Below, piece by piece: positions 898 through 59,134 of a stretch of 59,976 nt of DNA. The stretch is from an uncultured Acidobacteriota bacterium (lineage in GTDB: Bacteria; Acidobacteriota; UBA890): positions 5,177-65,152 of the forward strand of contig CAYVUW010000004.1 of NCBI GenBank assembly GCA_964455175.1, read 5' to 3'. A program made the position numbers and the translations under genes. The notes beneath the pieces were generated by a model. That model was not told where the DNA came from. It was given only the letters and a program-made list of their open reading frames with translations, and searched no databases. Position 1 is the first letter of the stretch. The number at the start of each line of letters is the position of its first letter.

Positions 898-2083
898 GCA
901 GGCATTTACTGACATGGCGGCTTCCGGCGCAGATGAGGATGTTCGGCACATTGGTGTCGGCATGCTGGGTTACGCCTTTATGGGGAAGGCGCACACAAAC
1001 GCCCTAAAAAAAATACCTCACATGATGTATCCACCTCCTGCGATACCAGATTTGGCAGCAATCTGTGGGCGTGATGGGGATGCTGTTTCTGAGGCCGCGC
1101 GTCGTTACGGTTACGCTCGTAGCTACACAGACTGGCGTGACATGCTCGAAGACGAAACCGTTGAACTGTTTGATAACGGAGGTCCTAACGACACGCACGC
1201 CGAGCCCTGCATAGCCGCTGCTGAAGCTGGTAAACACGTGTTATGTGAAAAGCCACTGGGGCGCACTGCCGAGGAATCTAAGCTCATGCTCGATGCGGTG
1301 GAGAAGGCTGGCGTCAAGCACATGGTGGCCTTCAACTACCGATTTGTCCCGGCGATTCGACAGGCGCGCCAGCTTATTGAAAGCGGCGCTCTGGGCCGCA
1401 TTTATCACTACCGGGCGGTTTATCTGCAGGAATGGATTATGTCCCACTACGACACACCCAAGATTTGGCGGCTCGACAAGGATCAGGCCGGGAGTGGTGC
1501 ATTGGGAGATTTAGGTGCTCACATAATTGATTTGGCACACTATTTGGTTGGCGACATAGGCTCGGTGGGGGCATTGGCAACAACGTTCATCCAAGAACGA
1601 CAACTTCCAGACGGTAGCGCCGCCGTCCCAGTCAATGTCGACGATGCGTTTGTTGCCACGGTTGAGTTCAGTAATGGGGCATTGGGCACGCTCGAGGCGA
1701 CCCGTTTTGCCGCTGGTCGCAAGAACCACCAGGTTATCGAGATCAACGGCGAAAAAGGCAGCATTCGCTTTGATCTGGAACGCTTCAATGAGCTGGAAGT
1801 GTTTTGGATTGACGACGCACCGAAAGAAACACAGGGCTTCCATCGAGTGCTGGTCACTGAGTCACACCACCCATTTTGGGAGAACTGGTGGCCCCACGGC
1901 CACATAATCGGGTGGGAACACACGTTCGTGCATGAGATCACGCACCTTCTCGATTGCATAGTCAATGACGGTGACGTAGCACCGCACGGCGCGACCTTCG
2001 AAGACGGTTATCGTGCAGCCATCGTTTGCGATGCAATCCTAGAATCGGCAGACAAGCGCCGGCAGATGGATATTCGGTATTGA
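890..2083 (+). CDS. Gfo/Idh/MocA family NAD(P)-dependent oxidoreductase
   Basis: Rossmann start [19 protein letters not shown] motif and [13 protein letters not shown]. The ATG at 890 overlaps the end of the upstream gene (stop at 895-897); 914 is an alternative start. Confidence 0.92.
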
Positions 2084-2130
2084 GGTGGACCTGGGCAAGT
2101 CAGCTGTCCCATGTTGAAGGAGGTTTCCCA

Positions 2131-3519
2131 TTGCGTACACGGCTACTTTCAATCCTAACCTTGACTGCTTTAGGGGCCCCTTTGGTTGTGGGCGCCAACG
2201 TGGCCTCACTCCCTGCAGGGTCATTGGCTAGACAGCAAGCCACTGCTGCCGCATCACAAATTGATGGTGCCCGAACGCGGTGGGAAATCAGCTGCAACAT
2301 CCGCAAGGACAAATTCGATTTCGTTCTCCCGAAGGCGATGCGTGCCAACAACATCGATATGTGGATCGTTATCGACCGGGGCCGTGGTACGCAGCCAATG
2401 ACACTCGATTTCGCTATCTCGACGGTCAACGGACAGGGCTTCTTCGTTTTCATTAATCATGGTGCCGGTCGCATCGAACGTTTCCAGTTGGGAGGCGGAA
2501 GTGAATTGGCTCAGGAGTGCGGTGCGTACGACGATTTCCGCAGTCTCGGTGAGCTTCGGGACATCGTGATCCAGAGTGATCCACAGCGCATCGCATTGAA
2601 TTTCCTGGAAGTCCCGAACATACGTGAGGGGCTGCACGTTGCTGACGGGTTGACTCACAGTGACTTCCAATTCCTCAGCGAAGAGCTTGGTGAGCCGTAC
2701 GCCTCGCGCTTTGTTTCCGCACAGCAGTTGGTCGCCGATTTTCGCGGGGAGCGTGTTGCCCTAGAGCTGGTTGAATTCTCAAAGGTCGCTGATTTGACGA
2801 GCTCGTACATTGAACGTGCCCTATCTAACGAGGTTATTACCCCAGGTGTTACGACACACAACGATGTTTCCTGGTGGCTGGAAGAACAGCGCGAAAGTAT
2901 GGGTTTGTTGCGTACCTGGTACCCAACCGTTTACACACACCTCCCCGACGGAGGTGAGATCGGTGGGACAGACCGGGTTATTCAGCGTGGTGACGTGCTA
3001 CAGATAGATTGGGGACTCGAGCGCAACAATTTCGCAACCGATATCAAACGCTTCGGCTATGTGTTGCGTGAGGGAGAGACCGAGGTGCCACCGGGGATCC
3101 AGAATGCGTTTGAGGAATCGTTACGGGTGCAAAGGATCATTCGTAACAACGTCACATCAGGGCGCACGGGACGAGAACAAATTGACGCGCTGAAGCAAAT
3201 CATCAGGGACGCTGGCTACGTTTATACCGAAAAAGAACGAGCTAGCGATGTGGAGGGAATCGAGGTCAACGTTGGGATGCACGCCGCTGGTAATATCGGA
3301 CACGATATGGCGGCGTCGCTGTTCGAAATCTTTCCATTTCGCACTGAGTACATGGTCCGACCCAACAACATCATCTCGCTTGAGTACATCGTCTTCACTC
3401 CTGCTCCGGAGTGGGATGGGGCGAAAGTCCCCGTGAATGTTGAAGAGAATGCGACGATTACCGAGCGTGGCATCGAATGGCTTTACCCGCCACAGATGCG
3501 AGTACAGGTTATTCGATAG
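2131..3519 (+). CDS. Exported M24 family metallopeptidase (Xaa-Pro aminopeptidase-like)
   Basis: TTG start after AAGGAGG and an N-terminal signal peptide. Pita-bread ligands are QIDWG..ATDIKR (D,D), HAAGNIGH (H plus second His), SLEY (E) and VEEN (E). Confidence 0.85.
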   Translation: MRTRLLSILTLTALGAPLVVGANVASLPAGSLARQQATAAASQIDGARTRWEISCNIRKDKFDFVLPKAMRANNIDMWIVIDRGRGTQPMTLDFAISTVNGQGFFVFINHGAGRIERFQLGGGSELAQECGAYDDFRSLGELRDIVIQSDPQRIALNFLEVPNIREGLHVADGLTHSDFQFLSEELGEPYASRFVSAQQLVADFRGERVALELVEFSKVADLTSSYIERALSNEVITPGVTTHNDVSWWLEEQRESMGLLRTWYPTVYTHLPDGGEIGGTDRVIQRGDVLQIDWGLERNNFATDIKRFGYVLREGETEVPPGIQNAFEESLRVQRIIRNNVTSGRTGREQIDALKQIIRDAGYVYTEKERASDVEGIEVNVGMHAAGNIGHDMAASLFEIFPFRTEYMVRPNNIISLEYIVFTPAPEWDGAKVPVNVEENATITERGIEWLYPPQMRVQVIR

Positions 3520-3568: not shown

Positions 3569-4474
3569 TTACCTCCAGGAAGCACCGGCTCCTTCTCCGA
3601 TGTGGGTAGCCTCGCCGCTGACGAGCTCGATGAGCTTTAGCATAAACTGACCGTTCTCCCTTGCCGTCAAAAGGATCTGGCTGCCATCCGGTGACCACTC
3701 CGGAAAGGCGTCACCGAACATCATGCTCTCAGTTATTTGGCGTTTTTGGGAACCGTCGACGTTCATCACCCAGAGGTTTTTATCTTCTTCTGTGCCTGAG
3801 GCCCAGGCGACTTGGCTGCTGTCTCGTGAGAGTGATGGCCACTCATCAAGGTGGTTGTTTTCAGTTAGACGTCTGGTCTCTCCGCTCTCTGGATTCGTCA
3901 AGTAGATCTCAGGATTGCCGTCTCGGTTCGATTCGTAGACAACGGCAGCACCATCACGCCCCCATCGCGCGTAGGCATCGCTTGTGCTGCCAGTATCGAT
4001 ACGTTCTTCGGCTCCGGTTGCGACGATGATGAGGTAAAGGCCGCGACCGTTGGCATCATCCTTGGTAACGAGAATTTGCTCGCCACGTGGGCCCCAGTCG
4101 GCTGGGTTGCCATTGTTTGCGAGTGCCACGGAAGACTCCCCGGATTCCGTGTCCAGAATCATGACGTTAGCCGAATCCTCGTTCATTGCGACGAACAGGA
4201 CTCGATTGCCATCCGGTGACCACACCGGAAAGGCAACATGCCCTCCTAAAGAGGTCAATTGCTGGGGAACAAGGTCAGAGATATTTGCAGAGAACACTTC
4301 GGAGGCTTTGCCGGCGGGACTGGCGTAGACGATCTCAGGCTTCCCCATCGTTGCACTGGGCCCACTTGCGCCTTCGGCAGGCAATTCCCCCGTCGGTGTG
4401 TTACCTCCGGCGCAGGCTACGAGAATTAGTGCCAGTGCGACAGGAACACTCCGGAGCTGCCCACATCGAATCAC
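3569..4474 (-). CDS. TolB-like/PD40 six-bladed beta-propeller lipoprotein
   Basis: Lipobox LVAC; repeated P-x-WSPDG motifs (PVWSPDG, PEWSPDG), SNRDGNPEIY and WVMNVDGS. GTG start overlaps the upstream TGA (GTGA). Confidence 0.88.
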   Translation of the reverse strand: MIRCGQLRSVPVALALILVACAGGNTPTGELPAEGASGPSATMGKPEIVYASPAGKASEVFSANISDLVPQQLTSLGGHVAFPVWSPDGNRVLFVAMNEDSANVMILDTESGESSVALANNGNPADWGPRGEQILVTKDDANGRGLYLIIVATGAEERIDTGSTSDAYARWGRDGAAVVYESNRDGNPEIYLTNPESGETRRLTENNHLDEWPSLSRDSSQVAWASGTEEDKNLWVMNVDGSQKRQITESMMFGDAFPEWSPDGSQILLTARENGQFMLKLIELVSGEATHIGEGAGASWR

Positions 4475-5388
4475 TGGCTCTCCTCGGCCCGGGTCGGCCC
4501 GATCTCCTGCAACGTTTCTGAACTCGGTGCCACCATGGTGCGACCAACGGTCTGTTGGTACACCTCATAAAACTCAGGCAGCTTGTCCTCAAGGTCAGAA
4601 GCATTTCTGATCGTCCACTCGTCCCCTCCCTGCGGCCCGTAGGGTTCCTGGAGGTTCCACGCCGTGGAGATGATCCAATAGGCGAACTCTTGCATTAGAA
4701 CCCGATGATGTCTTTCCCCCATGTCGTCACCGTATTGCTCAACGTTGTAGTAGCCCTCGTCAATTGATTTTTGCATCGCCTGTGCTAGTGCCGAGGTTTC
4801 ATTGATGCCCCACTCGTTGGGGAACGTGTAGTGCAATCCGACATCGCTCGTGTAATGCAGAATATGCTCCACGACCTCCATTACCTGCCCGCTCGGCACG
4901 TCTTCCATGATGATGTCGCAGATGCTGTTCTGGCTTCTAGTTAGGTCAAACGCTTCCTCTTCTGTTTGCCTGTAACTCCTATCGTCTCCGACGGGAACAG
5001 GAATCACCGCCCTGTAGCGGTAGTGGTTCTTGAGAATCTCCTCTTGCATTTCCAGGTCAAGGTTTTCATCGCGCGGATAGATTTCGGCAATGGTCTTTCC
5101 AACTAGGCGCATGAAGTCATCGGAGGCATCTTCACGTGCTACCAACTTCAAGCCGCTTGCCGTGAGTTCTTTTGTAAAGGGCGGATATTCATTCGTCGTT
5201 GCAACGTCCGTTACCTCGTACACATCAGCGGGAACCTCACCGATGGGTGAAATTAGGATGCAGCCGCCGAACATCTCCGGCGAAGCATTTGTTTGGTTTG
5301 CTGCGTTGTCGGTAACCGAGTCAGTAACAGTTGTACTGCATGCTCCAAAGACAAAAACTGTAAGAAAAACAGCTGCGAGCAACTTCAT
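4471..5388 (-). CDS. Zincin-like (ATLF/PPEP-type fold) lipoprotein with an atypical EHILH motif
   Basis: ATG at 5388 after GGAGG; lipobox FGAC. VVEHILHYTSDVG aligns with ALEEILHMVSDVG of 46499-47332, and downstream QEFAYW aligns with SEYIYW. Confidence 0.7.
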   Translation of the reverse strand: MKLLAAVFLTVFVFGACSTTVTDSVTDNAANQTNASPEMFGGCILISPIGEVPADVYEVTDVATTNEYPPFTKELTASGLKLVAREDASDDFMRLVGKTIAEIYPRDENLDLEMQEEILKNHYRYRAVIPVPVGDDRSYRQTEEEAFDLTRSQNSICDIIMEDVPSGQVMEVVEHILHYTSDVGLHYTFPNEWGINETSALAQAMQKSIDEGYYNVEQYGDDMGERHHRVLMQEFAYWIISTAWNLQEPYGPQGGDEWTIRNASDLEDKLPEFYEVYQQTVGRTMVAPSSETLQEIGPTRAEESQ

Positions 5389-5459
5389 TGGGAAACCTCC
5401 GGTTGATAGCCTGACGCCAAACATGGATGTTTGTGTGATTCTGGGAAGTTAGCTTCCCG

Positions 5460-6524
5460 TCAACTAGTCTCCTGCGTACCAACGGAATCGGGCACCGTTG
5501 TTTTCATCCAGTAAGCAGTATTGTGAAAGTTTGCTGCGACGCTTCCGGGCGGTACCAGCGCGTCACACGCGGCGCGTGAATCGTCATCAAGGGTCATTTC
5601 AAGAACCGGCAATAGATGTTGAAGGTGATCAAGTGTGCGCGCGCCGATCAGTGGTGCAGTAATACCCGGCTGATCCTTGCACCACAGCACCGCCAACTGT
5701 GCCGGAGTGATGCCAACTTGCTTGGCAACCTTAGCGAACTCACGAGCAATCTCCACACCACGTTGCGTTACCCGATCGGCATAAAACCCGCCACGCTTAG
5801 CGGCGCGTGAATCGGCTGGGTATTCATCGGCGTTGTTGTAACGTCCCGCTAGCACACCCATGCCCAAAGAGCCCCAGCAGATGATTCCGAGTCCGTGGCG
5901 CTGTGCCAGCGGGATTAGCTCGTTCTCGATACGCCGATCCAAAAGATTGTACGGTGGTTGCTCTGAGGCATAGCGCACCCAGCCCTTCATCTCGGACACC
6001 ATGATTCCCTCCATGACCAACCAAGCTGGTTGGGTCGAGCATCCGATGTAGCGCACCTTGCCTTGCTGTACCAGATCGTCGAGGGCGCCAATAGTTTCGT
6101 CGAGCGGAATATCGAAGGATGGGCGGTGCAACTGGTATAAGTCTATGTAGTCAGTTTGCAAGCGTCTTAATGACTCCTCGCAAGCGCGAATGATGTTCAG
6201 CCGCGAGTGCCCAGATTCATTAGGGCCGACACCGGGAACTTCTTCATCGAGTGAGATCCCGCGGCGCCTTCGTCCATGGTCGACCTTAGTGGCAATGAGG
6301 ACCTTATGGCGGATACCGCGTTCCTTAATGGTTTGGCCGATAATGGTCTCGCTCATACCCTCTGCGTAGACATCGCCGGTGTCTATCAGGTTGATGCCCG
6401 CGTCAATCGCTTGGTTGATGATCGCAGTTGCTTCATCCGCAGGCGTTGCGTCACCGAAGTTATCTGAGCCAAGACAGAGAGGGGAAACATTCACACCTGT
6501 GCGGCCGAGGATTCTGTATTGCAC
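5460..6524 (-). CDS. Aldo/keto reductase (paralog 1 of 3)
   Basis: GTG start ([18 protein letters not shown]) after AGGAAGG. Catalytic tetrad motifs are DTGDVY, ATK and LYQLH; [11 protein letters not shown] is also present. Confidence 0.93.
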
Positions 6525-6653
6525 TTTGCTTGCCTTCCTAGGATACGAAGCAATTCTTTTCACCGCGTTCGCGGACCGTACATCGTATACGATCTGTGCT
6601 CCTTTGCTGCTGCCACCGCTTTAATCTAAGACAACCTAGCTAGGAGACATGCT

Positions 6654-7502
6654 GTGATGTTGCGTTACTTACTCGTTGCATCGGTCGCGGTTACTTCTGT
6701 GGACGGGACCGCACCGGTGCAAGACGAAGTGTTGGCTGCGTTTCCTATTATTGAGACCGGGGAGAAAGTAATCATTCCGCCTCTGGGGGTACATCCCTTC
6801 TATCAGAAGTACATCAACGCGGAAGGCATCCTCATAGTCAGTTCGGTACAAGTTCCGGATGCGGCCCTCCTAGCGGCGCGGCGCACTGTTTTACATCTGC
6901 TTGCCCGCAGACCTGATGTGCACATAGAGATGTTGGCCTACAATCCGCGTATTTCCATCATGGGCGTCTCAGAGACTGCGTCGGATTTGCCCGAATTTGA
7001 TGTCGGCGCTGATGGCCAATGGGGGTTGGGGCAGATGCAGGGCGACCCAACCACGCTCGTTTCTGAACGCGGAATTTGCTACCCAGGGAACACTAAATAC
7101 CGCGCCAATTTTTTGTTACATGAATTTGTCCACAACATGCAGAATTTGGGTTGGATCCAGACCGACCCTGGTGTCGATGAAGAAATCTATGCGGCCTACA
7201 GCAACGCGGTAGCCCGAGGTTGGTTTGCTCCCCCGAGAACTGAAACGATGGGTATTGGACCAGATCGTTCCTTTGGGGATGACGAATACCTGACCCACAA
7301 CGTTAACGCTTGGTTTAACCTTAACGAATCGTTGCCGGGGCCCTGGGTAGATGTCCAGATTGGCGAGGCAGGGCCGCTCTCGGGGACGCGGGAACAGCTG
7401 CGCCAACGTGACCCGGCACTGTTTGAGATCATCGACCGTTTTCTTCCCGACTCGCTGGGGGACTTGATGAGCGGTTGTCCGCCGAATGTGGTTGATTGGT
7501 AA
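6654..7502 (+). CDS. Exported zincin-like metallopeptidase (canonical HEFVH)
   Basis: AGGAGA RBS and signal peptide. LLHEFVH zinc motif, downstream DEYL third-ligand motif and C-terminal LRQRDPALFEII helix typical of ATLF/PPEP-like domains. Confidence 0.75.
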   Translation: MMLRYLLVASVAVTSVDGTAPVQDEVLAAFPIIETGEKVIIPPLGVHPFYQKYINAEGILIVSSVQVPDAALLAARRTVLHLLARRPDVHIEMLAYNPRISIMGVSETASDLPEFDVGADGQWGLGQMQGDPTTLVSERGICYPGNTKYRANFLLHEFVHNMQNLGWIQTDPGVDEEIYAAYSNAVARGWFAPPRTETMGIGPDRSFGDDEYLTHNVNAWFNLNESLPGPWVDVQIGEAGPLSGTREQLRQRDPALFEIIDRFLPDSLGDLMSGCPPNVVDW

Positions 7503-7504
7503 AA

Positions 7505-8011
7505 ATGTCTCGTCGGTTCCTAATCAGCATCCTGGAAGTCACGCGAACAGCAGCGCGTGCCGTTGTAGTCCTTGCGTTCGCCACGATTGTCATCGTGGTG
7601 TTTGGGCAGGTCGTTTCACGCTTTCTATTCAACGCTCCGTTTTCATGGTCAGAGGAGTTGGCCCGATATCTCCAAGTTTGGCTGATCATGGTGGGATCGG
7701 CTGTCTGTCTTCGTAAAGGGCTGCATCTGACTGTTGACTACGCTGTCCATTCGTTGCCGGAGGGCAGCACGAAGCGAAACCTGCACCTCCTATCGCTAGC
7801 GGCAATTCTGTTTTTCCTAGGGATCGTATTCATCTCTGGCATCTCACTGATTACAGCGACGCTAAATCAACGAACACCTGCACTGCAGATACCAATCTGG
7901 GTTGTCTACTTGGCCATACCTGTCGGTAGTTTCTTGATGTTTTTGGAATCGGTTGGTCTCGTACTGACGGCATTCGACGGCGCGAGCCCGCCAATGGATG
8001 GTGACCAATGA
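7505..8011 (+). CDS. dctQ: TRAP transporter small permease
   Basis: About four hydrophobic segments; motifs QVVSRFLFNAPFSWSEELARY and GLHLTVD; directly upstream of dctM. Confidence 0.92.
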   Translation: MSRRFLISILEVTRTAARAVVVLAFATIVIVVFGQVVSRFLFNAPFSWSEELARYLQVWLIMVGSAVCLRKGLHLTVDYAVHSLPEGSTKRNLHLLSLAAILFFLGIVFISGISLITATLNQRTPALQIPIWVVYLAIPVGSFLMFLESVGLVLTAFDGASPPMDGDQ

Positions 8012-8033
8012 ACTTGGGGGAAGAAGTGCAGCG

Positions 8034-9317
8034 ATGATCGCGATTCTTGTTATCGCCATCGTGGTGTTTTTTCTCATCGGCATGCCGATTGCTTTTGCGA
8101 TCGGTGCCGGTTCGACGATTGCGATTCTATGGGATGGGACATTGCCGATCTCGATCGTCGCGCAGCGGATGTTCTTCGGACTCGATTCGTGGTTACTAAT
8201 GGCAATCCCGCTATTTATGCTCGCCGGCCAACTGATGGCTGCTGGTGGTATGTCGTCACGCTTGGTCGCCTTCACGACCGAACTTTTCGGTTTCATACGC
8301 GGCAGTTTGGGTTTCGTCTGCGTTGCGGCGTCAATGACTTTTGCGGGAGTTTCTGGTTCTTCGACCGCCGATACTGCGGCGGTCGGGTCGATTCTCTTGC
8401 CGCTGATGAAGGAGCGTGGCTACGACATGCGGTTCGCGACGGCATTGCAGGCCGCTGCAGGGTCGATCGGCCCAGTTATACCCCCCAGTTTGCTGATGAT
8501 CCTGATTGGGTTTACTACCAACACCTCGGTTTCAGCACTTTTTCTTGGAGGTATTGTTCCGGGGCTGTTAATCGGTCTTGGCTTGATGGTGGTGACGTAC
8601 GTGCATGCTGCCCGCGGCGGCCCTGCCTACCTGGGCACGCAAACGCACGTCGATTTCCGCCGCGTTGTGCGTACCGGTTTAGTGGCGGCGCCAGCACTTG
8701 GTATGCCAGTGATTATTCTAGTGGGCATCGTCGGAGGGATTTTTACCACTACCGAGGCTGCCGTCGTAGCGGTTGTGTACGGCCTGGGTGTCGGCATGTT
8801 CGTCTATAGAGAAATCTCGCTGCGTGACCTTCCGGGTATCATCGCCCGCTCCGCGGAGCTCGCCACAGTTATCATGTTTATACAGACGACGGCTTTTCTG
8901 TTTGCTTGGTTAATTACCGTTCACCAGGTTCCAGCCTTGTTAGCGAAGGCTTTCGTGGCACAAGTGAGCGGTCCCGGCACATTCTTCCTCCTCTACATCC
9001 CGCTTCTTTTGTTGGTCGGAGCGGTGATGGAGAGCTTCTCAGCCACGATCGTGTTACTGCCGATCATCTTTCCGATCGCACAGAGTCTCGGGGTAAACCC
9101 GGTTCACTTCGGGGTGGTTACGACCGTTGGGTGGGCGATTGGTTATGTCACGCCGCCGTTCGGCGCCACGCTGTTCGTTTCTTGTAGCCTTACCGGCAAG
9201 AGCATTCGAGAAACAACACCGTTCATTCTACCGATCGTCTTGTCAATGCTAGCTGTGTTACTACTGATAACCTTCTTCCCAGCAGTCGTGTTGTGGATTC
9301 CGGACATGTTTCAGTGA
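8034..9317 (+). CDS. dctM: TRAP transporter large permease
   Basis: Motifs LMAIPLFMLAGQLM, FAGVSGSSTADTAAVG, IGPVIPPS, NPVHFG and TPPFGATLF. Start placed at the ATG after GGGGGAAG (ORF track starts at 7998). Confidence 0.95.
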   Translation: MIAILVIAIVVFFLIGMPIAFAIGAGSTIAILWDGTLPISIVAQRMFFGLDSWLLMAIPLFMLAGQLMAAGGMSSRLVAFTTELFGFIRGSLGFVCVAASMTFAGVSGSSTADTAAVGSILLPLMKERGYDMRFATALQAAAGSIGPVIPPSLLMILIGFTTNTSVSALFLGGIVPGLLIGLGLMVVTYVHAARGGPAYLGTQTHVDFRRVVRTGLVAAPALGMPVIILVGIVGGIFTTTEAAVVAVVYGLGVGMFVYREISLRDLPGIIARSAELATVIMFIQTTAFLFAWLITVHQVPALLAKAFVAQVSGPGTFFLLYIPLLLLVGAVMESFSATIVLLPIIFPIAQSLGVNPVHFGVVTTVGWAIGYVTPPFGATLFVSCSLTGKSIRETTPFILPIVLSMLAVLLLITFFPAVVLWIPDMFQ

Positions 9318-9334
9318 AGGGCGAGGAGGGTGCG

Positions 9335-10324
9335 ATGTCGACAAGGCATGGTTTAGCGACCGTGCTACTGGCGGTGGTGCTGCTGGTGAGTTCTTGCGTA
9401 AGGGGTGCCCCCGATGTCTTTATTATCAAAGTGGCATCGTCGGCTCCGGCGGATGAGCCGGGATCACGGGCCCTGCAACGTTTCGTTGACGTCCTCAATG
9501 AAGCCGCCCCTGGACGTGTCGAGGCGAGACTATTCGCAGCAGCGGCACTCGGAAACGATCGAGATGTTACCGAAGGGTTGAAACTCGGCACAGTCGAGAT
9601 GCAGATGGCTTCGAACTCGACGCTGGCTACTTTCGTTCCCGAGATGTATGTCTTCGAGATGCCGTTTTTGTTTGAAGATAACGAGCACATGTTCGCGGTG
9701 CTCGATTCGGAAATAGGAGAGAGTTTTCGTCCTGCACTTGAACGTGAAGGCTTCCATCTGATGGGTTACTTCACATTTGGCTTGAGGCACATCATGACCA
9801 CGGAGAAGCCGATTGGCACGATGGCTGATCTGGGAGGCCTCAAGATTCGAACCATGGAGAGTCCACCACATCTAGATGCGTTTGCCGCCTTCGGTGCTAA
9901 TCCTCTGCCGATGGCTTACAACGAGCTATACACGTCCCTCGAAACAGGTGTCATTGATGGCGCCGAGGCTGCCAATTCGAATTATTATTCGAAGAAATTC
10001 TATGAAGTGGCGCCTTATTGGGCTCAAGTTGGCTGGCTGCGTTTAGTAGCACCTGTGATTATGAGCAAAGCGTTTTACGACAGCATGCCTCTAGATCTCC
10101 AAGAATTAGTCGACAAGACACTTAAAGATCTCGAAGCATACGAACGGCAGCTTTACACAGAGGTTGATGAGCAGCGGCTACGTGACCTGGAGGCGGCGGG
10201 GGTTAGCGTCACCTATCCTGCCGCCGGGGCTTTCGTTGAAGCGTCTTCGACTGTTTACGAGGCATGGCTCCAGAGAATTGGCGGGCGAAGCCAGCTAAAC
10301 GCGATCCTCGATTTTCCTCGTTGA
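9335..10324 (+). CDS. dctP: TRAP transporter substrate-binding protein, probable lipoprotein
   Basis: GAGGAGG RBS; lipobox VSSC. Motifs LGNDRDVTEGLKLGTVEM, KIRTMES (carboxylate-binding Arg) and ELYTSLETGVIDGAE. Confidence 0.92.
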   Translation: MSTRHGLATVLLAVVLLVSSCVRGAPDVFIIKVASSAPADEPGSRALQRFVDVLNEAAPGRVEARLFAAAALGNDRDVTEGLKLGTVEMQMASNSTLATFVPEMYVFEMPFLFEDNEHMFAVLDSEIGESFRPALEREGFHLMGYFTFGLRHIMTTEKPIGTMADLGGLKIRTMESPPHLDAFAAFGANPLPMAYNELYTSLETGVIDGAEAANSNYYSKKFYEVAPYWAQVGWLRLVAPVIMSKAFYDSMPLDLQELVDKTLKDLEAYERQLYTEVDEQRLRDLEAAGVSVTYPAAGAFVEASSTVYEAWLQRIGGRSQLNAILDFPR

Positions 10325-10357
10325 GGCCTTTGTGATCGAATACTTGAGCGTTTGCTT

Positions 10358-11350
10358 ATGACCGGTCGGTCCATTGCCATCCCAGTTGGAGAGATCCGCG
10401 GTGCGCACGCTCGAATCGAACCATACATTCATCGCACACCGATTTTAACGAGTGAGACACTGGATGCAGCGTTCGGTAGCCGCATTTTCTTCAAGTGTGA
10501 GAACTTTCAGAAGAGTGGAGCTTTCAAAGTAAGGGGTGCGTTCAATGCCTTACTTTCGCTGTCACGGGAGGATGCGGCGCGTGGCATCGTCACTAGCTCT
10601 TCTGGTAATCAAGCCGCCGCTGTTTCGCTTGCCGCCGCCGCACGGGGTGTCAGTGCTTACATCGCCATGCCAAAAATCGCCGTCGCGTCGAAAGTTGCAG
10701 CAGTTCAACGCTATGGCGGCAACATTGTCTGGGTTGAGTCGAATAATCGTATTCCTACCTCGGAAGAATACGACGCTACGGCATTGGCAATACAGGAAGA
10801 AACTGGCGCCAACCTCGTGCACCCGTACGACGACCTGAGAACAATTGCCGGTCAAGCAACCTGTGCCTTCGAGTTACTCGAAGAGGTACCCGATATTGAC
10901 TACTTGTTGGCACCAGTGGGTGGTGGTGGACTCCTGAGTGGCACCTGTTCGAGTGCCGCAGCATTAGCGACCGGTACGAAGGTTGTCGGCTGCGAGCCGG
11001 AGAAGGCTGACGACGCGTGGCGTTCTTTTCAAGAAGGAACAATCGTTCCTCAAATTGATCCTCAGACTATCGCCGACGGGCTGCGCACTTCATTGGGCGA
11101 GTATACGTTTCCGATCATCGCTGCGAACGTCAGTGAGATTGTCACAGTGTCGGAAGACGCGATCCTTAGGTCCATGCGGCTGGTTTGGGAAACCATGAAA
11201 ATCGTCATTGAGCCAAGTGCTGCGGTGCCTGTGGCGGCACTGTTAGAAAATAAGATTTCGGGACACGCGGATCGCATTGGGGTGATTCTGTCGGGTGGCA
11301 ACGTTGATCTGGACTCTTTGCCTGATTGGTCGGAGCTCTCAGCTGAGTAG
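10358..11350 (+). CDS. PLP fold-type II serine/threonine dehydratase family enzyme, serine racemase / hydroxyaspartate ammonia-lyase type
   Basis: FKCENFQKSGAFKVRGA (PLP Lys), SSSGNQA, PVGGGGLLSG, EPSAAV and ILSGGNVD. No C-terminal ACT regulatory domain. Confidence 0.88.
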   Translation: MTGRSIAIPVGEIRGAHARIEPYIHRTPILTSETLDAAFGSRIFFKCENFQKSGAFKVRGAFNALLSLSREDAARGIVTSSSGNQAAAVSLAAAARGVSAYIAMPKIAVASKVAAVQRYGGNIVWVESNNRIPTSEEYDATALAIQEETGANLVHPYDDLRTIAGQATCAFELLEEVPDIDYLLAPVGGGGLLSGTCSSAAALATGTKVVGCEPEKADDAWRSFQEGTIVPQIDPQTIADGLRTSLGEYTFPIIAANVSEIVTVSEDAILRSMRLVWETMKIVIEPSAAVPVAALLENKISGHADRIGVILSGGNVDLDSLPDWSELSAE

Positions 11351-18439: not shown

Positions 18440-19822
18440 CTAGCGGATCAGCAAAATTCTTTCGTTGCGTGGATACAACAACTCGACGCCCTGATTCGTA
18501 ACTATGACGTTGTCTTCGAAGTTGATTCGTAAGCGCTGGTCGCCGAATGATGGCAGAGCCGTGTGGGTTATGAACTCGAATGAGAAGATGTTGTTGGACT
18601 GAATCATGAGGTTGGCTCGGAGTTCGCGGAACGGTGCAAACGAAGGACCGACCGCCACTTGGCTGTTGCCCGTGTTGCCGACGACATGACAATCGATCGA
18701 AATACCAGTCACACTGGGTTGGTCAAAGCTCTCGACGATCTGCCTGTCGATTTCACCAAAGTTGACGAAAGGTGTGTATACAAACCCTTCGGCCTCGAGC
18801 GCCGCGACGACCGCAGCGAGTGTTTCACGTGCGGTGCGGCCTGTTCGAATGTTTCGGCGCATGATGTCGCGGGCCCGGCGGCCTTCATCCCAGGCATGCC
18901 TAATGTCCTCTGGCAGAGCTGTTTCATCTTCTCGCAGCAGGTAGGCGTTTCGCTTCATGTCGGTACCGAAATTGAGGTATTTCACCCCCGTGTCGAACTG
19001 CAGCAGGTCGCCTCGCTGAAAAGCGTATGTGCTTGAGCGGTATTCTTGGGGCTCTGCGAGGGCGGAATGAATCACTATGGGTCTAGTGAGGCCGAACGAA
19101 GATCCCAGACCGGCCTCTAACAGGCGTTCTTGCACCCACCAGGCGACGTCTTCACCGGTTGTAATTCCAGGCGTGATAACTTCGCGTGATAAGGCTCGCT
19201 CCAGGATCCGACGGGTCATGTCACCGGCCTGGGCGAAGGCGACGATCTCCGATTGAACCCGGCGTACTCGGAAGTCGGTGATGAGATTCTCGCTGGAGAC
19301 AAGCCGGGAGGCGTAAGTCTCGCCGATTGCTTCCACAAGCTGCTGATACCCGGAATGCGACAGGCCGTCAGCCGCTGCAAGCCACGCGGACGTGTTGACG
19401 GCGATCCGCTCCGGGTCCCGTTCCTCAATAAATTGACGCAATTCCGTAGCATTGTGGTTGGGATACCAGGCATTCCAGTCGTTCCAAGCAAAGATGTCGT
19501 ACGCGCCGCTCGTGTACATTCCTTGGCCACGGCCGGCAAGCACGGCACGCTCGATCCTGTCACCACCGCGATCGGTAAAAATGAAATAGCCGGCGGTTCC
19601 ACCAAGATCGAGTGCTAGCGCGTCAGGGTTGCCATCACGGATGACATGAATCCACATGTCTATACCGTTGTCCCGCATCACGCCGGGGAGCACCACGTCG
19701 AACTTCTCTCTTTGGATCAGGTCGAGCATTTCTGCCCGCGCCTGGGCTTCTTGCGCAGATGCTTGGGCCCCCGAGATGATGGTGACCAAAGATGCGAGCA
19801 CTGCAAGGATTTGCTTCTTCAT
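18440..19822 (-). CDS. Exported M24 family protein, HxxGNTGN variant
   Basis: ATG at 19822 after AGGAG; signal MKKQILAVLASL...ASA. Motifs QFDTG..GTDMKR, CHVVGNTGN, SFEF and FEDN. Confidence 0.85.
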   Translation of the reverse strand: MKKQILAVLASLVTIISGAQASAQEAQARAEMLDLIQREKFDVVLPGVMRDNGIDMWIHVIRDGNPDALALDLGGTAGYFIFTDRGGDRIERAVLAGRGQGMYTSGAYDIFAWNDWNAWYPNHNATELRQFIEERDPERIAVNTSAWLAAADGLSHSGYQQLVEAIGETYASRLVSSENLITDFRVRRVQSEIVAFAQAGDMTRRILERALSREVITPGITTGEDVAWWVQERLLEAGLGSSFGLTRPIVIHSALAEPQEYRSSTYAFQRGDLLQFDTGVKYLNFGTDMKRNAYLLREDETALPEDIRHAWDEGRRARDIMRRNIRTGRTARETLAAVVAALEAEGFVYTPFVNFGEIDRQIVESFDQPSVTGISIDCHVVGNTGNSQVAVGPSFAPFRELRANLMIQSNNIFSFEFITHTALPSFGDQRLRINFEDNVIVTNQGVELLYPRNERILLIR

Positions 19823-20035
19823 GATCTTTCTCCTGGCCAAGCATAAGGGGCAATGTTGGGCGATTCAGAATCGCATCGATCTCTACACGTTTCAGCTAAA
19901 CCCTACTTTACTGACTCCTTGGTTAACCTCGGCGAGGGCACATTGGATGTGAAAGTGCTGGAACTTTTACTTATTCAGGCGGCAGTACCCGCAGCTAAGA
20001 TCATGGCTTCAATAGTGGGCTGCAATCCTTGAAAG

Positions 20036-22988: not shown

Positions 22989-24374
22989 TCAGCGGATTAA
23001 CAGAATCCTCGGATTCGGAGGATAGAGCCATTCGACGCCATGGACCGTAACGATGGCGTTGTCCTCGAAGTTGATCGACATGCGTGTTCCATCGTCCATG
23101 ACGGAATGCACCACGAATTCCAGCGAGAAGATGTTGTCTGGTTGGATCATGACGTGTGCACGATCGGGGCGGAACGGTGCGAACGATGGTCCCACTGCTG
23201 CCTCGCTGTTCCCGGTATTGCCGACGGTGTGGCAGTCAATGGAAATACCAGTACGAGGATCCTCGCCCATCGCGTTGATGATGTCGCGATCGCGGCTGTC
23301 GTCGACGAAGGGTGTGTAAACGTACCCTGCTGCCTCCAGAACCTCGACAAGGTATGCCAATGTCTCACCGGCTGTACGTCCAACTTTGATGTTGTTTTCG
23401 ATGATCTGCCGGGCCTGGTAGCCCATGTCCCAGGCGTGTTGGATGTCAGCTGGCGGAGCGGTTTCTCCCTCGCGCAACACGTAAGCGTGGCGCTTGAAGT
23501 CGGTGCCGAAGTTCAGGTAGCGGATTCCCATGTCATAAGAGAGGAAATCTCCGCGTTGAATGGCTCCGTCCCGGCTTCTCCGTGGCCCACGGCCCCCTGC
23601 TGCAGTTCGGGAGATCCCAGGGGTGCTAACCCCAAATGATGGCCGCACACCCATCTCTAACAGCCTCTCCTGTACCCACCAGCCCACGTCCCGGCTGGTG
23701 GTGGCCCCAGGCACAACGACCTCATTTGATAGTGCTCTCTCCAACGTGCGCCGAGTCATTTCACCAGCTGTGGAAAAAGCGGCGATCTCTCGCTCTACTC
23801 GACGTACACGGAAGTCGGTTATGAGCTGGTCCGCTGATACCAGTCGATCGGCATAAACCGGTCCGATTGTTTCCACAAGATTCTGGTAGTCGGTGTGCGA
23901 CATGCCGTCGGCAACGCCGATCCATTTCGAGCTATTGATTGCTATGCGCCGTGGATCGCGTTCCTCGACCAAGGTCCGGAGATCTTCGGTCGATCCAACT
24001 GTGTCGTATACAGACCGATCTTGCAGTTGGAATGGGCTTAACGCGATGCGTTCGATTCTATCGCCCCCGCGATCGGCAAAAACAAACGTTCCAAATTCGG
24101 CCCCTAGATCGTGTTCCAACGGGTCGGGGTTGCCCATGCGGATCGAGTGGATCCACATATCGATGCCGTTATCACGCATCGCTCCCGGCAAGATCAGGTT
24201 GAACTTATCGCGCCGGATAAGGTTGAGCGTTTCCCAGCGAGCTTTGGCATCGAGCATGCGCACGTCTTGGCTCACGACCGGTTGCGCGCTCGACAAATTA
24301 CCCATCGCGAGTATGAGGGCCAACAACCCACCACCTAGCAAAGCGGTTCTAGTTGTGCTGGAACTCCCCTTCAT
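22989..24374 (-). CDS. Exported M24 family protein, HxxGNTGN variant
   Basis: Signal peptide. Motifs SYDMG..GTDFKR, CHTVGNTGN, SLEF and FEDN. ATGA overlap with the TPR gene stop. Confidence 0.85.
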   Translation of the reverse strand: MKGSSSTTRTALLGGGLLALILAMGNLSSAQPVVSQDVRMLDAKARWETLNLIRRDKFNLILPGAMRDNGIDMWIHSIRMGNPDPLEHDLGAEFGTFVFADRGGDRIERIALSPFQLQDRSVYDTVGSTEDLRTLVEERDPRRIAINSSKWIGVADGMSHTDYQNLVETIGPVYADRLVSADQLITDFRVRRVEREIAAFSTAGEMTRRTLERALSNEVVVPGATTSRDVGWWVQERLLEMGVRPSFGVSTPGISRTAAGGRGPRRSRDGAIQRGDFLSYDMGIRYLNFGTDFKRHAYVLREGETAPPADIQHAWDMGYQARQIIENNIKVGRTAGETLAYLVEVLEAAGYVYTPFVDDSRDRDIINAMGEDPRTGISIDCHTVGNTGNSEAAVGPSFAPFRPDRAHVMIQPDNIFSLEFVVHSVMDDGTRMSINFEDNAIVTVHGVEWLYPPNPRILLIR

Positions 24375-25281: not shown

Positions 25282-25695
25282 TCATTGTTGGGTTTTGCGG
25301 CCCCGATGGACAAGATACGTAGTCCAGGATGCAACCGATAGAAGTCCCAAGAACTCGCGTCCTTCTTCCATTTCTCTGCTCATCATCTCCCAGGATTGAA
25401 AAAGGTCTGGGTGTGGGAATGAGGTTTGCGTAACTACTGTGGGTACTAGTGTGGCTGCCCAAACGAAGGCCCCCACCGCAACCACTGCCGGTATTTTCCA
25501 CAAGTCCGGAAACCACAACGCGGCGAAAGAGACACCCGCTGCGGCAAGGTAAAGCACCAACCAAGCATAAGGATCAGGATCGTTGTATTGCACTGCAGCT
25601 GCAAAGACAAGCAACATCCCCACGGTGCCGACCCCAAATTTCGCTGTCTTGGACGGCATTTCCAGCGTGCCCGGAATGGCATTCTCTCCCGGCAT
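25282..25695 (-). CDS. Transmembrane 220 (TMEM220) family protein
   Basis: QYNDPDPYAWLVLY and EEGREFLGL motifs; four hydrophobic segments; TAATG coupling to the upstream M24 gene. Confidence 0.8.
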   Translation of the reverse strand: MPGENAIPGTLEMPSKTAKFGVGTVGMLLVFAAAVQYNDPDPYAWLVLYLAAAGVSFAALWFPDLWKIPAVVAVGAFVWAATLVPTVVTQTSFPHPDLFQSWEMMSREMEEGREFLGLLSVASWTTYLVHRGRKTQQ

Positions 25696-27047
25696 TACTT
25701 AATGATGTACCACTCGACCTGGCGGCCGCCAAGGAAAACAAGCCGGTCCTCGGTCATGGCTACATTTTGCTCCAGTGTAATGCGGACATCCTGTCCACCC
25801 CATTCCGGAACAGATGTCCACGTGTGCAACTCCATGGCGTATGTCGTGTTGGCGTAGACCGGATATCCTCCCGGTGGTAGCAATGGCGCCGGTTCAGCCA
25901 GCTCGCCACCCCCCAGGCCAGGTCCGGCCCCATAGCGCATCTTGATAAACCCCCCATTCAAGCTGTATCGCCGAAGATAATACGGCAGCGGATGTGAGTA
26001 GATCGATGGTCGCAAGCCGTCGTCCCAGGCAGCCTCAAGAGCATCGTTGACAATGTCATTCGACGGTTTGCCGGCCGCGAAAGCGTTAGCAAAGTGTATT
26101 TGAAGACGATTGGTGTTGTTGAGTGCTACTTGTAATCCTTCGGGTGCATCCGTCTCGCCTTCCTTCAGCACATAGGCGACTTGCTGTGTGTCCGTTCCAA
26201 CGCCGAAATAGTTGATTCCGGTATCCACGCTGATCATGTCTCCACGCCTAATGATCATGTTGTAACCATTGCGAGGTGGCACCTCAATGGTGAAGTGTTC
26301 GTCATCCTCTTCATACTTAGGACGCTCGAGTCGGCTTCGTTGGATCGTGATCGTTGGATGGTCGCTGGTTTCGAGCCCCAGGTCGCGGTAACGCTGACGG
26401 ATCCACCAGTTCAGATCGTCGGTCGTAGTGACGTCCGGCACAACGACCCTGTTCGAGAATGCCTCAGCGATAATGTCGTAGGCGACCCGCGCTACGTGGT
26501 TGAAGGCACTGACTTCTTCGGGGTTTCTTTTCTCCAGGAATCCGGTACGCAGGTCACGGCTGACGACAAAGCGTGCGGCCATTTCGCTGTCAACGATCTC
26601 GGCAAATTGCTCTCGTGAACCACGGCTGACACCTATGTGGCTGGGATCATGGCTGTTTATGAGATCGGCAACTTCGCCGGCATCAATTGCCAAAGACTCG
26701 ACACCATCGTCTGCGCCCTTATCTATAAAGATCAATGCGTCATATCGCTGTGATACTAAGCCTTCATAATTGGCCGGTACCAACGAGTAATAAAGGGCGC
26801 CGTCTTCCTCACCGATCAGCCACACGTCGACCCCCACGCGTCGCATTACCTCAGGAACGATGTGTTTCTTCCGCCAGCGCAGCCACTCTTCTTCCATCAG
26901 TATTTGCTGTCTTATGGGTGCAATGTTCTCGATGTCGTTTTGCGACTCGATGCCGTAGGGTTGCTGGAAGGCTTGTGGCCTACCGATGGCCGTAGGTAGC
27001 AGCACCATAACTACCAAGAAGGAAAACGCTACTTTTGTTAGCGACAT
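25695..27047 (-). CDS. Exported M24 family protein with an insertion after the metal-ligand His
   Basis: Signal peptide. Motifs DHPTITIQR, SVDTG..GTDTQQ, SHPLPYYLRR...YGAGPG, AMEL and LEQN. Confidence 0.82.
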   Translation of the reverse strand: MSLTKVAFSFLVVMVLLPTAIGRPQAFQQPYGIESQNDIENIAPIRQQILMEEEWLRWRKKHIVPEVMRRVGVDVWLIGEEDGALYYSLVPANYEGLVSQRYDALIFIDKGADDGVESLAIDAGEVADLINSHDPSHIGVSRGSREQFAEIVDSEMAARFVVSRDLRTGFLEKRNPEEVSAFNHVARVAYDIIAEAFSNRVVVPDVTTTDDLNWWIRQRYRDLGLETSDHPTITIQRSRLERPKYEEDDEHFTIEVPPRNGYNMIIRRGDMISVDTGINYFGVGTDTQQVAYVLKEGETDAPEGLQVALNNTNRLQIHFANAFAAGKPSNDIVNDALEAAWDDGLRPSIYSHPLPYYLRRYSLNGGFIKMRYGAGPGLGGGELAEPAPLLPPGGYPVYANTTYAMELHTWTSVPEWGGQDVRITLEQNVAMTEDRLVFLGGRQVEWYIIK

Positions 27048-27118: not shown

Positions 27119-28555
27119 ATGATGATAGTTCGAACCATTCTATTTTTTTTCACGTCGCTACTCACGCTGTCTGCGACAGCCGTTCCGCAAATTGTGCAAA
27201 CGGCTCGAGAACGAGCCGAGATTCTCCACCTGATCCGAAAGGAAAAACTGGACCTGATCTTGCCGGATGCAATGCGTGACAACGACGTTGACATGTGGAT
27301 CCATGTAGCCCGCGGGGGAGATCCTGACCCGATGCAAGCTCATTTTGGTTCGATTTCAGGTTATGCGATCTTCACCGACCGAGGTGGAGACAGAATCGAG
27401 CGCGCTCTCTTCGGAGGAGGCGGGCATCCCGACTTCTTCGACATCTACGGCTCGCGAGATATAGCCATGGCGATTGAGGGCTATGACTATCGGACACAGG
27501 ATTTTGCCGTTTACAACGAACTGCGCGAGTTCGTGGCCGAGCGAGACCCTGAGGTCATCGCGGTCAACACGTCGGATTGGCTCTCCATTGCCGACGGCAT
27601 CTCTCATTCTCAATGGGAAAAGCTCGTACGTATTCTAGGCCCAGAATACGCGGCACGTATTATCTCCGCGGAAAACGTGATTACCGATTTTCGTGTGCGC
27701 AGAGTGCAGCGGGAGATCGTTGCTTTTGCTAACGCGCTGGAAATCCACCGCCAAATCCTCGAGCGTGCCTTGAGCAACGAGGTGATTGAGCCAGGCGTTA
27801 CGACGCTTGGTGAGATTGGCTGGTGGGTGCGTGAGGAGTTTGCCAAACGCGGCATGGACTTCGATAACGAAATGGGTGTCAGTATCCCGCGGATACTCTA
27901 CTCGCACGTGTCATTGCCAATCGACCCGCCAGATGTTCGATGGTGGATCCACCACGACGACTATGTGATTCAGAGGGGTGACTTCCTAACCTTTGACGTC
28001 AGTCTTCAGTACCTCGACTACTTCAGCACTGACTACAAGCGAAATGCTTATTTGTTGAGGGAAGGAGAAGAGACAGTGCCGGAGGACATCCAGTACGCCT
28101 ACGATCAGGCGATCGCAGCGAGGGCGATCATTCGTGAGGAAATAGAGGTTGGTAAGACCGCCGAGAAAACGCTAGCCGATATTGTTGCCGCTCTTGAAGC
28201 TGCGGACTATATCTACACCCCGTTCAAAGACGTTGGCACTGAGGACTACGTGCGTATACAAGAAGCACTAATTAACGAGGAACGTTCAGGGTTCTCTATC
28301 GACCTACACAGCCAGGGCAACAACGGGGGCAGCCTGATTACCGTCGGACCATCCGTGTCGCCGTTTCGTCTCGACCGGTCGCACCTGATCATTCAGGAGA
28401 ACAACTTCTTCTCGTTTGAGTACATGGTGCACACTAACCTACCGGAAAGGCCTAGGTTCCCGGTGTCGATTAACATCGAGGGGAACCACATAGTCACTAG
28501 CCGTGGGGTCGAATACCTTCACCCGCCGAACGAACGAATCTTGCTGGTCCACTGA
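27119..28555 (+). CDS. Exported M24 family protein, HSQGNN variant
   Basis: GAGGAA RBS and signal peptide. Motifs TFDVS..STDYKR, LHSQGNNGG, SFEY and IEGN. Close paralog of 55995-57422. Confidence 0.85.
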   Translation: MMIVRTILFFFTSLLTLSATAVPQIVQTARERAEILHLIRKEKLDLILPDAMRDNDVDMWIHVARGGDPDPMQAHFGSISGYAIFTDRGGDRIERALFGGGGHPDFFDIYGSRDIAMAIEGYDYRTQDFAVYNELREFVAERDPEVIAVNTSDWLSIADGISHSQWEKLVRILGPEYAARIISAENVITDFRVRRVQREIVAFANALEIHRQILERALSNEVIEPGVTTLGEIGWWVREEFAKRGMDFDNEMGVSIPRILYSHVSLPIDPPDVRWWIHHDDYVIQRGDFLTFDVSLQYLDYFSTDYKRNAYLLREGEETVPEDIQYAYDQAIAARAIIREEIEVGKTAEKTLADIVAALEAADYIYTPFKDVGTEDYVRIQEALINEERSGFSIDLHSQGNNGGSLITVGPSVSPFRLDRSHLIIQENNFFSFEYMVHTNLPERPRFPVSINIEGNHIVTSRGVEYLHPPNERILLVH

Positions 28556-55798: not shown

Positions 55799-55994
55799 AG
55801 TGTGCTTCTGCAACTCTCTGGAGACCGTTTCTTCCCGGAGGGACTCTGTCTCCTATTTTCGAAAAAAATAACAAGAAACCACGAGATTTGACCGAAGGAT
55901 GCCCTAGAATTCGCTGCGGATCCATTCTGAACGTTGACCTAGTTAGAAACTGTAATCGGGTAATGGGGCAAGCTCGTCAGGGAGAGAGATAGTG

Positions 55995-57422: not shown

Positions 57423-57444
57423 GCTTTTAGGGGAGCGAAACACA

Positions 57445-59070: not shown

Positions 59071-59134
59071 ACCACACTCTGTTGACCTCCTTGTTTTCAA
59101 TGCCGCGCAGTTAACTAAATAGACGAATTAAGAA

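Follow-up and report, generated by a model that had tools for sequence, protein, structure and literature searches.

Gene content of the unit

The subject of this work is a five-gene unit headed by a gene for a putative exported peptidase, found in an uncultured bacterium of the Acidobacteriota (lineage UBA890; GenBank assembly GCA_964455175.1, contig CAYVUW010000004.1, positions 5,177 to 65,152). The whole stretch analysed, hereafter called the window, comprises 59,976 nucleotides. Its positions 6654-11350 hold, on the plus strand, five co-oriented genes that encode a zincin with an HExxH motif, the three components of a tripartite ATP-independent periplasmic (TRAP) transporter (dctQ, dctM and dctP), and a pyridoxal 5'-phosphate (PLP)-dependent enzyme of fold-type II (Table 1).

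The five genes are tightly packed. The gaps between them are all of 33 nt or less: 2 nt from the zincin stop codon to the dctQ ATG at 7505, then an overlap or a gap of 22 nt between dctQ and dctM, 17 nt before dctP and 27-33 nt before the gene of the PLP enzyme. None of the junctions contains a terminator-like site. A ribosome-binding site, AGGAGA, is located at 6643-6648, 5-8 nt 5' of the zincin start. With respect to dctM, the start at 8034 is more likely than the one at 7998, since a GGGGGAAG site lies upstream of it and the ortholog in a near-complete genome of the sister genus (G055) begins at the equivalent codon. The dctP ATG at 9335 is preceded by a GAGGAGG site; the listed GTG at 9293 would overlap dctM. 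An earlier account made from the letters of the DNA, here called the sequence-only reading, had placed the zincin stop at 7502 and the dctQ start at 7505, with gaps below 35 nt, and all its gene calls and junctions were borne out when the region was read again. The zincin gene is almost certainly co-transcribed with dctQMP and the gene of the PLP enzyme.

On the other side of the zincin start lies a divergent gene for an aldo-keto reductase (AKR). The intergenic region common to both genes contains a perfect palindrome, ATCGTATACGAT, an exact copy of which is present at the same relative place in all contigs of the same genus and in G055, where it is found upstream of a zincin remnant; the genome G094 has a version with two mismatches. 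There is no indication of a repeated regulon motif in the window, which holds one exact copy of the palindrome and no more matches with two mismatches than expected by chance. The palindrome is a candidate operator for the divergent AKR and zincin-TRAP promoters.

TRAP transporters are known for the uptake of organic acids, and as a rule the other genes in such operons encode cytoplasmic catabolic enzymes. The distinctive features of the window TRAP are the gene order Q-M-P, a lipoprotein as binding protein, an exported peptidase at the head and a PLP dehydratase at the tail. DctP possesses the lipobox LVSSC, and its residues R186 (the Arg of the KIRTM motif), R165 and N228 (ORF numbering) align with Arg173, Arg152 and Asn213 of PDB 4P47, the roles of which as a carboxylate triad have been described (PMC11668362). 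This Arg/Arg/Asn triad is conserved; the sequence-only reading had given it as established that a DctP with the KIRxM Arg binds carboxylates. The likeness to solved DctP-type systems extends to DctQ, DctM and DctP, which all score above the cut-off. The nearest solved relative of DctP is 4N8Y (174 bits, E 5.6e-50, over about 300 residues), which binds galacturonate, and the next ones bind glucuronate (4X8R), 2-keto-3-deoxygluconate (KDG; 7BBR), pantoate and erythronate; with 174 bits for the best match, the window TRAP is too distant from these systems for their ligands to be transferred to it.

The PLP enzyme contains the PALP domain, SSGN at aa 83-86 and the PLP lysine within SGAFKVRG, in agreement with its earlier description as an SSGN-type enzyme of fold-type II. 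These features are common to serine racemases, L-threo-3-hydroxyaspartate dehydratases and BhcB, and by its sequence the enzyme is assigned to this serine racemase/beta-hydroxyaspartate dehydratase group. Its best matches in the PDB are serine racemases (297 bits, 5CVC). The best-scoring NCBIfam model is that of BhcB (NF045641, 407.6 bits) and the model of threo-3-hydroxy-L-aspartate ammonia-lyase (NF005454, PRK07048) gives 353.9 bits, so that the enzyme falls short of both equivalog cut-offs (550 and 452, respectively). Genes similar to bhcA, bhcC or bhcD are not present among the neighbours examined, no genome-wide search having been made.

Table 1. Coordinates of the features of the window that are discussed in the text.
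Feature	Positions	Strand	Remarks
Aldo-keto reductase (AKR), divergent	5460-6563	-	PF00248, E 1.2e-74; intergenic region shared with the zincin gene
Palindrome ATCGTATACGAT, 12 bp, perfect	6582-6593		AKR/zincin divergent intergenic region, 61 nt 5' of the zincin start
Zincin gene	GTG 6654 or ATG 6657 to TAA 7500-7502	+	282 aa from GTG 6654; first cistron
HEFVH motif, aa 156-160 (H156, E157, H160)	7119-7133	+	Two predicted zinc ligands and predicted general base
DDEY (D209, D210, E211, Y212)	7278-7289	+	E211, predicted third zinc ligand
dctQ, TRAP small membrane subunit	7505-8011	+	PF04290, E 3.5e-32, 111 bits
dctM, TRAP large membrane subunit	8034-9317 (alternative start 7998)	+	PF06808, E 1.5e-100, 337 bits; TIGR00786, 380 bits (cut-off 268)
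dctP, lipoprotein-type TRAP solute-binding protein	ATG 9335-10324	+	PF03480, E 5.9e-74, 249 bits; NF037995, 250 bits
PLP enzyme, fold-type II, predicted cytoplasmic	10358-11350 (alternative start TTG 10352)	+	PF00291, E 4.7e-74, 250 bits
Exported M24-like paralog	22989-24374	-	PF00557; in genus g10 and in metagenome contigs, its orthologs (72%) directly precede that of the zincin gene
Second paralog set	55992-59974	+	Exported M24-like gene 55992-57422, DUF885-like gene 57445-59070, zincin copy 2 from 59135 to the window end

Fold and zinc site of the zincin

The zincin protein has no match in Pfam-A or NCBIfam, even at E<=10, and neither its sequence nor the profile of its close family matches any PDB sequence. 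The AlphaFold (AF2) model, built on the alignment with 72 close homologs, has a mean pLDDT of 86, and low confidence is confined to residues 1-23, presumed to be a signal peptide. The best Foldseek matches of this model are PPEP-3, PPEP-2 and PPEP-1/Zmp1 (E 4e-4 or weaker), with a probability of 1.00 and a TM score of 0.5 normalised on the target. VIA-align, which is independent of Foldseek, gave PPEP-2 (Z 10.8, 165 aligned residues, root-mean-square deviation 3.9), PPEP-3 (Z 10.2) and the catalytic domain of anthrax lethal factor (LF; Z 9.2), and the other matches among the top ranks are zincins as well.

Among the sequence searches, only a widened profile built from 46 diverse members of the superfamily (profile A4) reached the PPEPs and LF, with E values of 0.003 for PPEP-1, 0.013 for PPEP-3 and 0.034 for LF. 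Its alignment places H156, E157 and H160 onto H142, E143 and H146 of PPEP-1, and E211 onto E185 of the tandem E184-E185. The roles of these residues have been described for PPEPs, E185 of the tandem being a zinc ligand, with E197 as the residue concerned in PPEP-3 (PMC12828418). The Pfam family ATLF (PF07737) is matched by 15 of the 46 diverse relatives at E<=0.01; its gathering score is exceeded by P0077 and P0080 only, and the match of P0077 (41 bits, cut-off 27.4) falls inside the stretch that also matches the zincin family profile. In a protein language-model atlas an ATLF-bearing cluster appears among the neighbours of the zincin, which is only a lead. Judged by profiles and model together, the zincin is an unnamed, distant branch of the ATLF/PPEP-like gluzincins (MEROPS M34, Pfam ATLF). 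The sequence-only reading had called it a canonical zincin, a term that suits the HExxH motif and the fold but otherwise overstates the likeness, as no Pfam or NCBIfam model recognises it.

The zincin shares with PPEP-1/Zmp1, PPEP-2, PPEP-3 and the LF catalytic domain, all of them secreted single-domain gluzincins of about 200-250 residues, the fold (Z 9-11 over 165-177 aligned residues) and the disposition of the zinc site, in which the active-site helix carries HExxH and an acidic tandem about 50 residues further on supplies the Glu ligand (PMC12828418). Identity is 13-17%, and the likeness concerns fold and zinc site without implying Pro-Pro specificity. Unlike these proteins, the zincin has an extra N-terminal strand region of about 30 residues, and the loop that precedes its Glu ligand differs from theirs; its host is a diderm marine acidobacterium, and it is neither a toxin nor a motility switch.

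The predicted active site is strongly conserved. The 72 close homologs (50-93% identity) share 44 invariant positions, which include H156, E157, H160, D210, E211 and Y212. HEFVH is invariant in 34 close homologs, and across the 46 diverse superfamily members H156 and H160 are invariant and E157 is at least 90% conserved. The close family shows no variation at E211 and Y212 either, and these two positions are conserved to at least 90% in the superfamily. H156 and H160 would bind zinc together with E211 as third ligand, and E157 would act as general base. Within the genus, the dN/dS ratio is 0.11-0.15 for the zincin gene and 0.09-0.11 for dctP and the PLP enzyme gene: the zincin gene is under purifying selection and functional. 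The protein begins with a hydrophobic, signal-like segment that has no lipobox Cys, and most of its close homologs have lipoprotein-type N-termini with lipoboxes, so that export to the periplasm is probable. With the fold, the zinc-site alignment and these N-termini, the earlier designation as an exported HExxH zincin stands, its export being predicted.

Some further members of the superfamily deserve mention. A search of 1.84 billion proteins with the family profile retrieved 2,163 cluster representatives at E<=1e-3. Three close homologs (P0039, P0041 and P0046) are named 'alpha-glucosidase' by JGI, a name that neither sequence nor fold supports. Among the distant members P0099, P0101 and P0131 there are fusions to peptidase M64, to GH43 with F5/8-type-C and laminin-G domains, and to TSP1/ZP domains in a eukaryotic-looking protein. 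A distant paralog group (32-33% identity), seen in the genome G118 (L053:6792-7943) and in that of the window (G000:C30:4250-5047), carries EEFGH instead of HExxH; the G118 gene is convergent with an ortholog of the PLP enzyme gene and has a DUF885 gene and a second TRAP nearby.

Synteny of zincin and TRAP genes

Synteny was surveyed in 54 homologous zincin loci, 18 from species-representative genomes and 36 from metagenomes. dctQ lies directly 3' of the zincin in six of them, all at least 93% identical to the window protein and therefore from the same genus. On the 5' side, the gene next to the zincin is an exported M24-like gene in 10 of the 54 loci and a DUF885-like gene in 13. In one locus (L060), a DPP-IV gene followed by the zincin is divergent from AKR followed by dctQMP. 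The zincin is not adjacent to the orthologous TRAP in genus g10 or in the genomes G094, G205, G153, G002 and G397. Absence from orthologous TRAP loci was the test set beforehand for the claim that the zincin is a conserved member of the TRAP operon, and that claim has to be given up: the zincin holds this place in the window's genus only.

The window genome has three zincin paralogs, at 6654-7502, from 59135 to the window end, and, as a distant third, on another contig. In the tree, the first copy is placed (SH-aLRT 85) with those copies of g10 that have an M24-like gene in front of them, and the second (SH-aLRT 98) with DUF885-linked copies; the series M24-like, DUF885-like and zincin is the common arrangement for the lineage of this second copy. 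Zincin and DctP ortholog also tend to be present or missing together. A sample of 401 genomes of the phylum contains the close zincin subfamily in nine genomes and DctP orthologs (at least 68% identity) in eight, and all eight also carry a zincin of the close subfamily. In genus g10, three genomes have both the zincin and the DctP ortholog and two (96% complete) have neither.

The sister genus shows how the linkage can be lost. Gene order in G055 equals that of window positions 1-18 kb, with 69-94% amino-acid identity, and dctQMP and the PLP enzyme gene are intact (83-94%), but about 200 nt alone separate the AKR gene from dctQ. The zincin remnant within this spacer (L034:7012-7136) consists of an ORF of 26-29 codons, corresponding to the signal-peptide part, which is joined out of frame to the last 18 or so zincin codons. 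The product of the 5' ORF agrees with P0003, a zincin homolog, over residues 1-18 (12 of 18 identical, E 7e-5), and the 3' stretch, in another frame, over residues 264-280 (15 of 17 identical, E 2e-9); the stop codon is kept, as are the few nucleotides between it and the dctQ ATG. Since both ends of the gene remain in this intergenic region, a genus-specific insertion of the zincin was rejected. Zincin and dctQ were already neighbours before the two genera diverged, and this arrangement was later ended in G055 by a deletion of about 730 nt of the zincin gene. A single promoter 5' of the zincin that drives the whole unit would fit these data, because the deletion spared the leader, including the palindrome, and the 3' junction with dctQ. 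G055 retains a DUF885-linked zincin paralog elsewhere on the contig. In G094 the intergenic region between AKR and dctQ (L052) contains no zincin remnant.

The remaining orthologous TRAP loci are arranged in several ways. In genus g10 (DctP 76% identical) dctQMP stand directly behind orthologs of window genes 33927-29417 and ahead of an M24-like gene, at a distance of about 14 kb from the zincin ortholog and of about 90 kb from that of the PLP gene. There, two lipoprotein genes, the orthologs of window 4471-5424 and 3569-4474, are the divergent partners of the PLP ortholog (L051:6105-8951, L053:7959-10758), which is not paired with a window-type TRAP. This suggests that in family f1 AKR and dctQMP, with or without the zincin, were inserted between the PLP gene and the two lipoprotein genes. 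In G094, dctQ, dctM and the PLP gene adjoin AKR without dctP (L052:5865-10954); dctP is found on another contig (L038:570-2925), where it directly follows an ortholog of the M24-like 22989-24374, a separation due either to rearrangement or to an assembly split. G205, G153 and G002 (DctP 48-49% identical) have dctQMP followed by AKR and an M24-like gene. In G397, from a different family of the phylum (DctP 50% identical), a DUF885 gene lies 19 nt 5' of dctQ-dctM-dctP (L039:5357-9990); here, too, the first gene of a TRAP operon encodes an exported zincin-type protein.

Adjacency of TRAP and PLP genes is restricted to family f1. AKR adjoins dctQMP in three arrangements (f1; L060; G205, G153 and G002), and no other neighbour of this group of TRAP orthologs is as persistent. 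The zincin-TRAP and TRAP-PLP adjacencies are thus both lineage-specific, and the recurrent neighbours are AKR and some exported peptidase-like gene.

Exported peptidase-like genes abound in the window genome (2.45 Mb), which has 22 exported-type M24-like, seven DUF885, seven M28-like and three zincin-like genes. Six of the M24-like genes are in the window (2026-3519, 18440-19840, 22989-24374, 25695-27047, 27119-28555 and 55992-57422) and encode proteins of about 450-500 aa with signal peptides. In seven aligned sequences, the Asp/Asp and Glu/Glu of the D-D-H-E-E metal-ligand pattern are invariant and the His is present in six, all except 25695-27047; these proteins are far from characterised M24 enzymes (best PDB match E 1e-3). 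For DUF885, a literature search gave no functional study.

Two of the three TRAP loci of the window genome have an exported peptidase-like gene within 1.5 kb. In a second TRAP locus of this genome (G000:C4:75097-83772, 12-19 kb past the right end of the window), a DUF885 gene lies 1.3 kb from dctP, and an AKR gene is nearby. To examine enrichment, 20 further DctP loci were taken from eight genomes of the order that are near-complete, and compared with 19 control stretches 100 kb away on the same contigs. An exported peptidase-like gene occurs within 7 kb of nine of the 20 loci and of two of the 19 controls (Fisher p 0.03); inclusion of five TRAP1 loci raises this to 14 of 25 (p 0.004). Three of six DctP groups sit beside such genes (M24-like, DUF885, M28-like and the window zincin). 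In one group, an M24-like gene is within 7 kb in all six loci, and the series M24-like, dctQ, dctM was read directly in one of them; in another, all three loci have DUF885, M28-like or unk317-like neighbours. For instance, G069 (L098:3531-10554, C9) has M28-like, dctP, dctQ, dctM and a homolog of window 4471-5424 (unk317-like) in series, with the starts of dctP and of the unk317-like gene overlapping the preceding stops and a divergent DUF885 gene upstream. Because four peptidase families are involved in five architectures, we argue that the adjacency of peptidase and TRAP genes is a real tendency in the order.

Readings of the unit

We favour, with moderate confidence, the reading that the zincin is an active exported zinc metalloendopeptidase and the first cistron of the TRAP-PLP unit, to which it is loosely and modularly coupled inside a peptide-catabolic island. 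The region shared by AKR and zincin, with its conserved palindrome, would give rise to a five-gene transcript, zincin-dctQ-dctM-dctP-PLP. Co-regulated with the transporter, the zincin would probably help to make small carboxylates in the periplasm; the lipoprotein DctP may capture them through its Arg/Arg/Asn site, and the PLP enzyme might deaminate an imported beta-hydroxy amino acid. Within this scheme we regard the zincin as a periplasmic 'front end' that is optional and exchangeable. It is not needed by the TRAP transporter, nor peculiar to it, since the sister genus has deleted it and DUF885, M24-like or M28-like genes take its place in other lineages.

A wider proposal is made tentatively and stands well below an even chance: that DctP-type TRAPs in the order are coupled to exported metallopeptidases (ATLF-like, M24-like, DUF885, M28-like) and import amino acids or peptide-derived acids released in the periplasm, the zincin being one interchangeable front end. 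To our knowledge, neither a role in peptide scavenging nor an operon that combines peptidase and TRAP genes has been described for DctP-type systems. A known analogy is that of the SusC/SusD-linked 'substrate import-associated zinc metallohydrolase lipoproteins' of the Bacteroidota, with which the unit has in common the concept of a small exported zincin encoded with a solute importer. However, the importer is a TonB-dependent one of the outer membrane there and a TRAP of the inner membrane here, and the match to PDB 9URD is non-significant (E=2). The logic of cleavage followed by TRAP import, as set out in the sequence-only reading, is plausible at the level of the clade, where exported peptidase-like genes recur beside TRAP genes, but it does not hold as one conserved zincin-TRAP-PLP unit.

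Several observations weigh against a peptidase that feeds the transporter. Enzymes of the M34 type are endopeptidases, and their products would be peptides, atypical ligands for DctP. The solved relatives of DctP bind sugar or hydroxy acids, which fits the AKR neighbour better than the peptidase. With respect to catalysis, the oxyanion Tyr found in PPEPs and LF seven residues before the Glu ligand (Y178 in PPEP-1) has no clear counterpart in the zincin. The superfamily consensus at this place is TYAxxNxxEY, and the loop of the window subfamily differs, its nearest aromatic residue (Y, F or W; F207 in the window copy) being at the fourth position ahead of E211; the invariant Y212 might substitute for the oxyanion Tyr. 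At the level of the order, three DctP groups have no peptidase neighbour (0 of 7, 0 of 2 and 0 of 2 loci), the counts and the p-value overstate independence because the genomes tested are related, and some adjacency is expected by chance because these genomes are rich in peptidase genes and genes of this kind are clustered.

The first alternative takes up several of these points. The TRAP would import a sugar or hydroxy acid processed by the AKR, and local shuffling would have put the zincin behind the AKR/dctQ promoter, where it shares transcription and nothing else. A sugar-acid/AKR function for the window TRAP is a serious rival, although we regard this explanation of the whole unit as rather unlikely. 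The galacturonate ligand of 4N8Y and those of the next relatives (glucuronate, KDG, pantoate, erythronate) speak for it, as does the AKR beside dctQMP in three different arrangements; in g10, moreover, dctQMP directly follow the orthologs of window 33927-29417, a putative sugar-oxidation module, and in G055 the zincin was deleted with the rest of the unit unharmed. However, identity to the solved sugar-acid binders (174 bits for 4N8Y) is too low for ligand transfer, chance alone would hardly have brought four different families of exported peptidases next to three TRAP groups, and the zincin has been kept at the operon head throughout the genus under purifying selection.

The sequence-only reading had proposed a dedicated three-step pathway, in which the zincin cleaves a natural product that contains hydroxy- or D-amino acids, for example a siderophore or non-ribosomal peptide, the TRAP imports the beta-hydroxy or D-amino acid released and the PLP enzyme deaminates it. 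Such a pathway agrees with the tight operon, with BhcB as top NCBIfam model of the PLP enzyme, with the SSGN and serine-racemase-type active-site motifs and with the carboxylate triad in DctP, but it is improbable given that orthologous TRAP loci lack the zincin or have lost it by deletion and that TRAP and PLP gene are unlinked in g10. In addition, the PLP enzyme scores under both hydroxyaspartate cut-offs, the conserved partners of the zincin are M24-like and DUF885 genes and not the window TRAP, and no genes for non-ribosomal peptide synthetases, siderophores or TonB receptors were found among the neighbours examined. The proposal of a siderophore or hydroxy-amino-acid substrate has found no support. 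Finally, a non-catalytic zincin-fold binding protein or pseudo-enzyme, to which the missing oxyanion Tyr (F207), the lack of a Pfam match and the EEFGH of the distant paralog group might point, is very improbable in view of the purifying selection on the gene and of H156, E157, H160, E211 and Y212, which do not vary among the close homologs and are conserved to 90% or more in the wider superfamily.

Since everything rests on genomic context, the favoured reading of the zincin as an active, modularly coupled exported endopeptidase is a lead rather than a discovery. The deletion in G055 offers a natural comparison, that is, an equal operon with and without the peptidase. The branch of the ATLF/M34 superfamily to which the zincin belongs is large and has no family model of its own. 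If the reading is true, exported peptidases encoded in TRAP operons would suggest a periplasmic 'digest and capture' of proteinaceous dissolved organic matter in marine Acidobacteriota, and they could lead to new classes of TRAP ligands.

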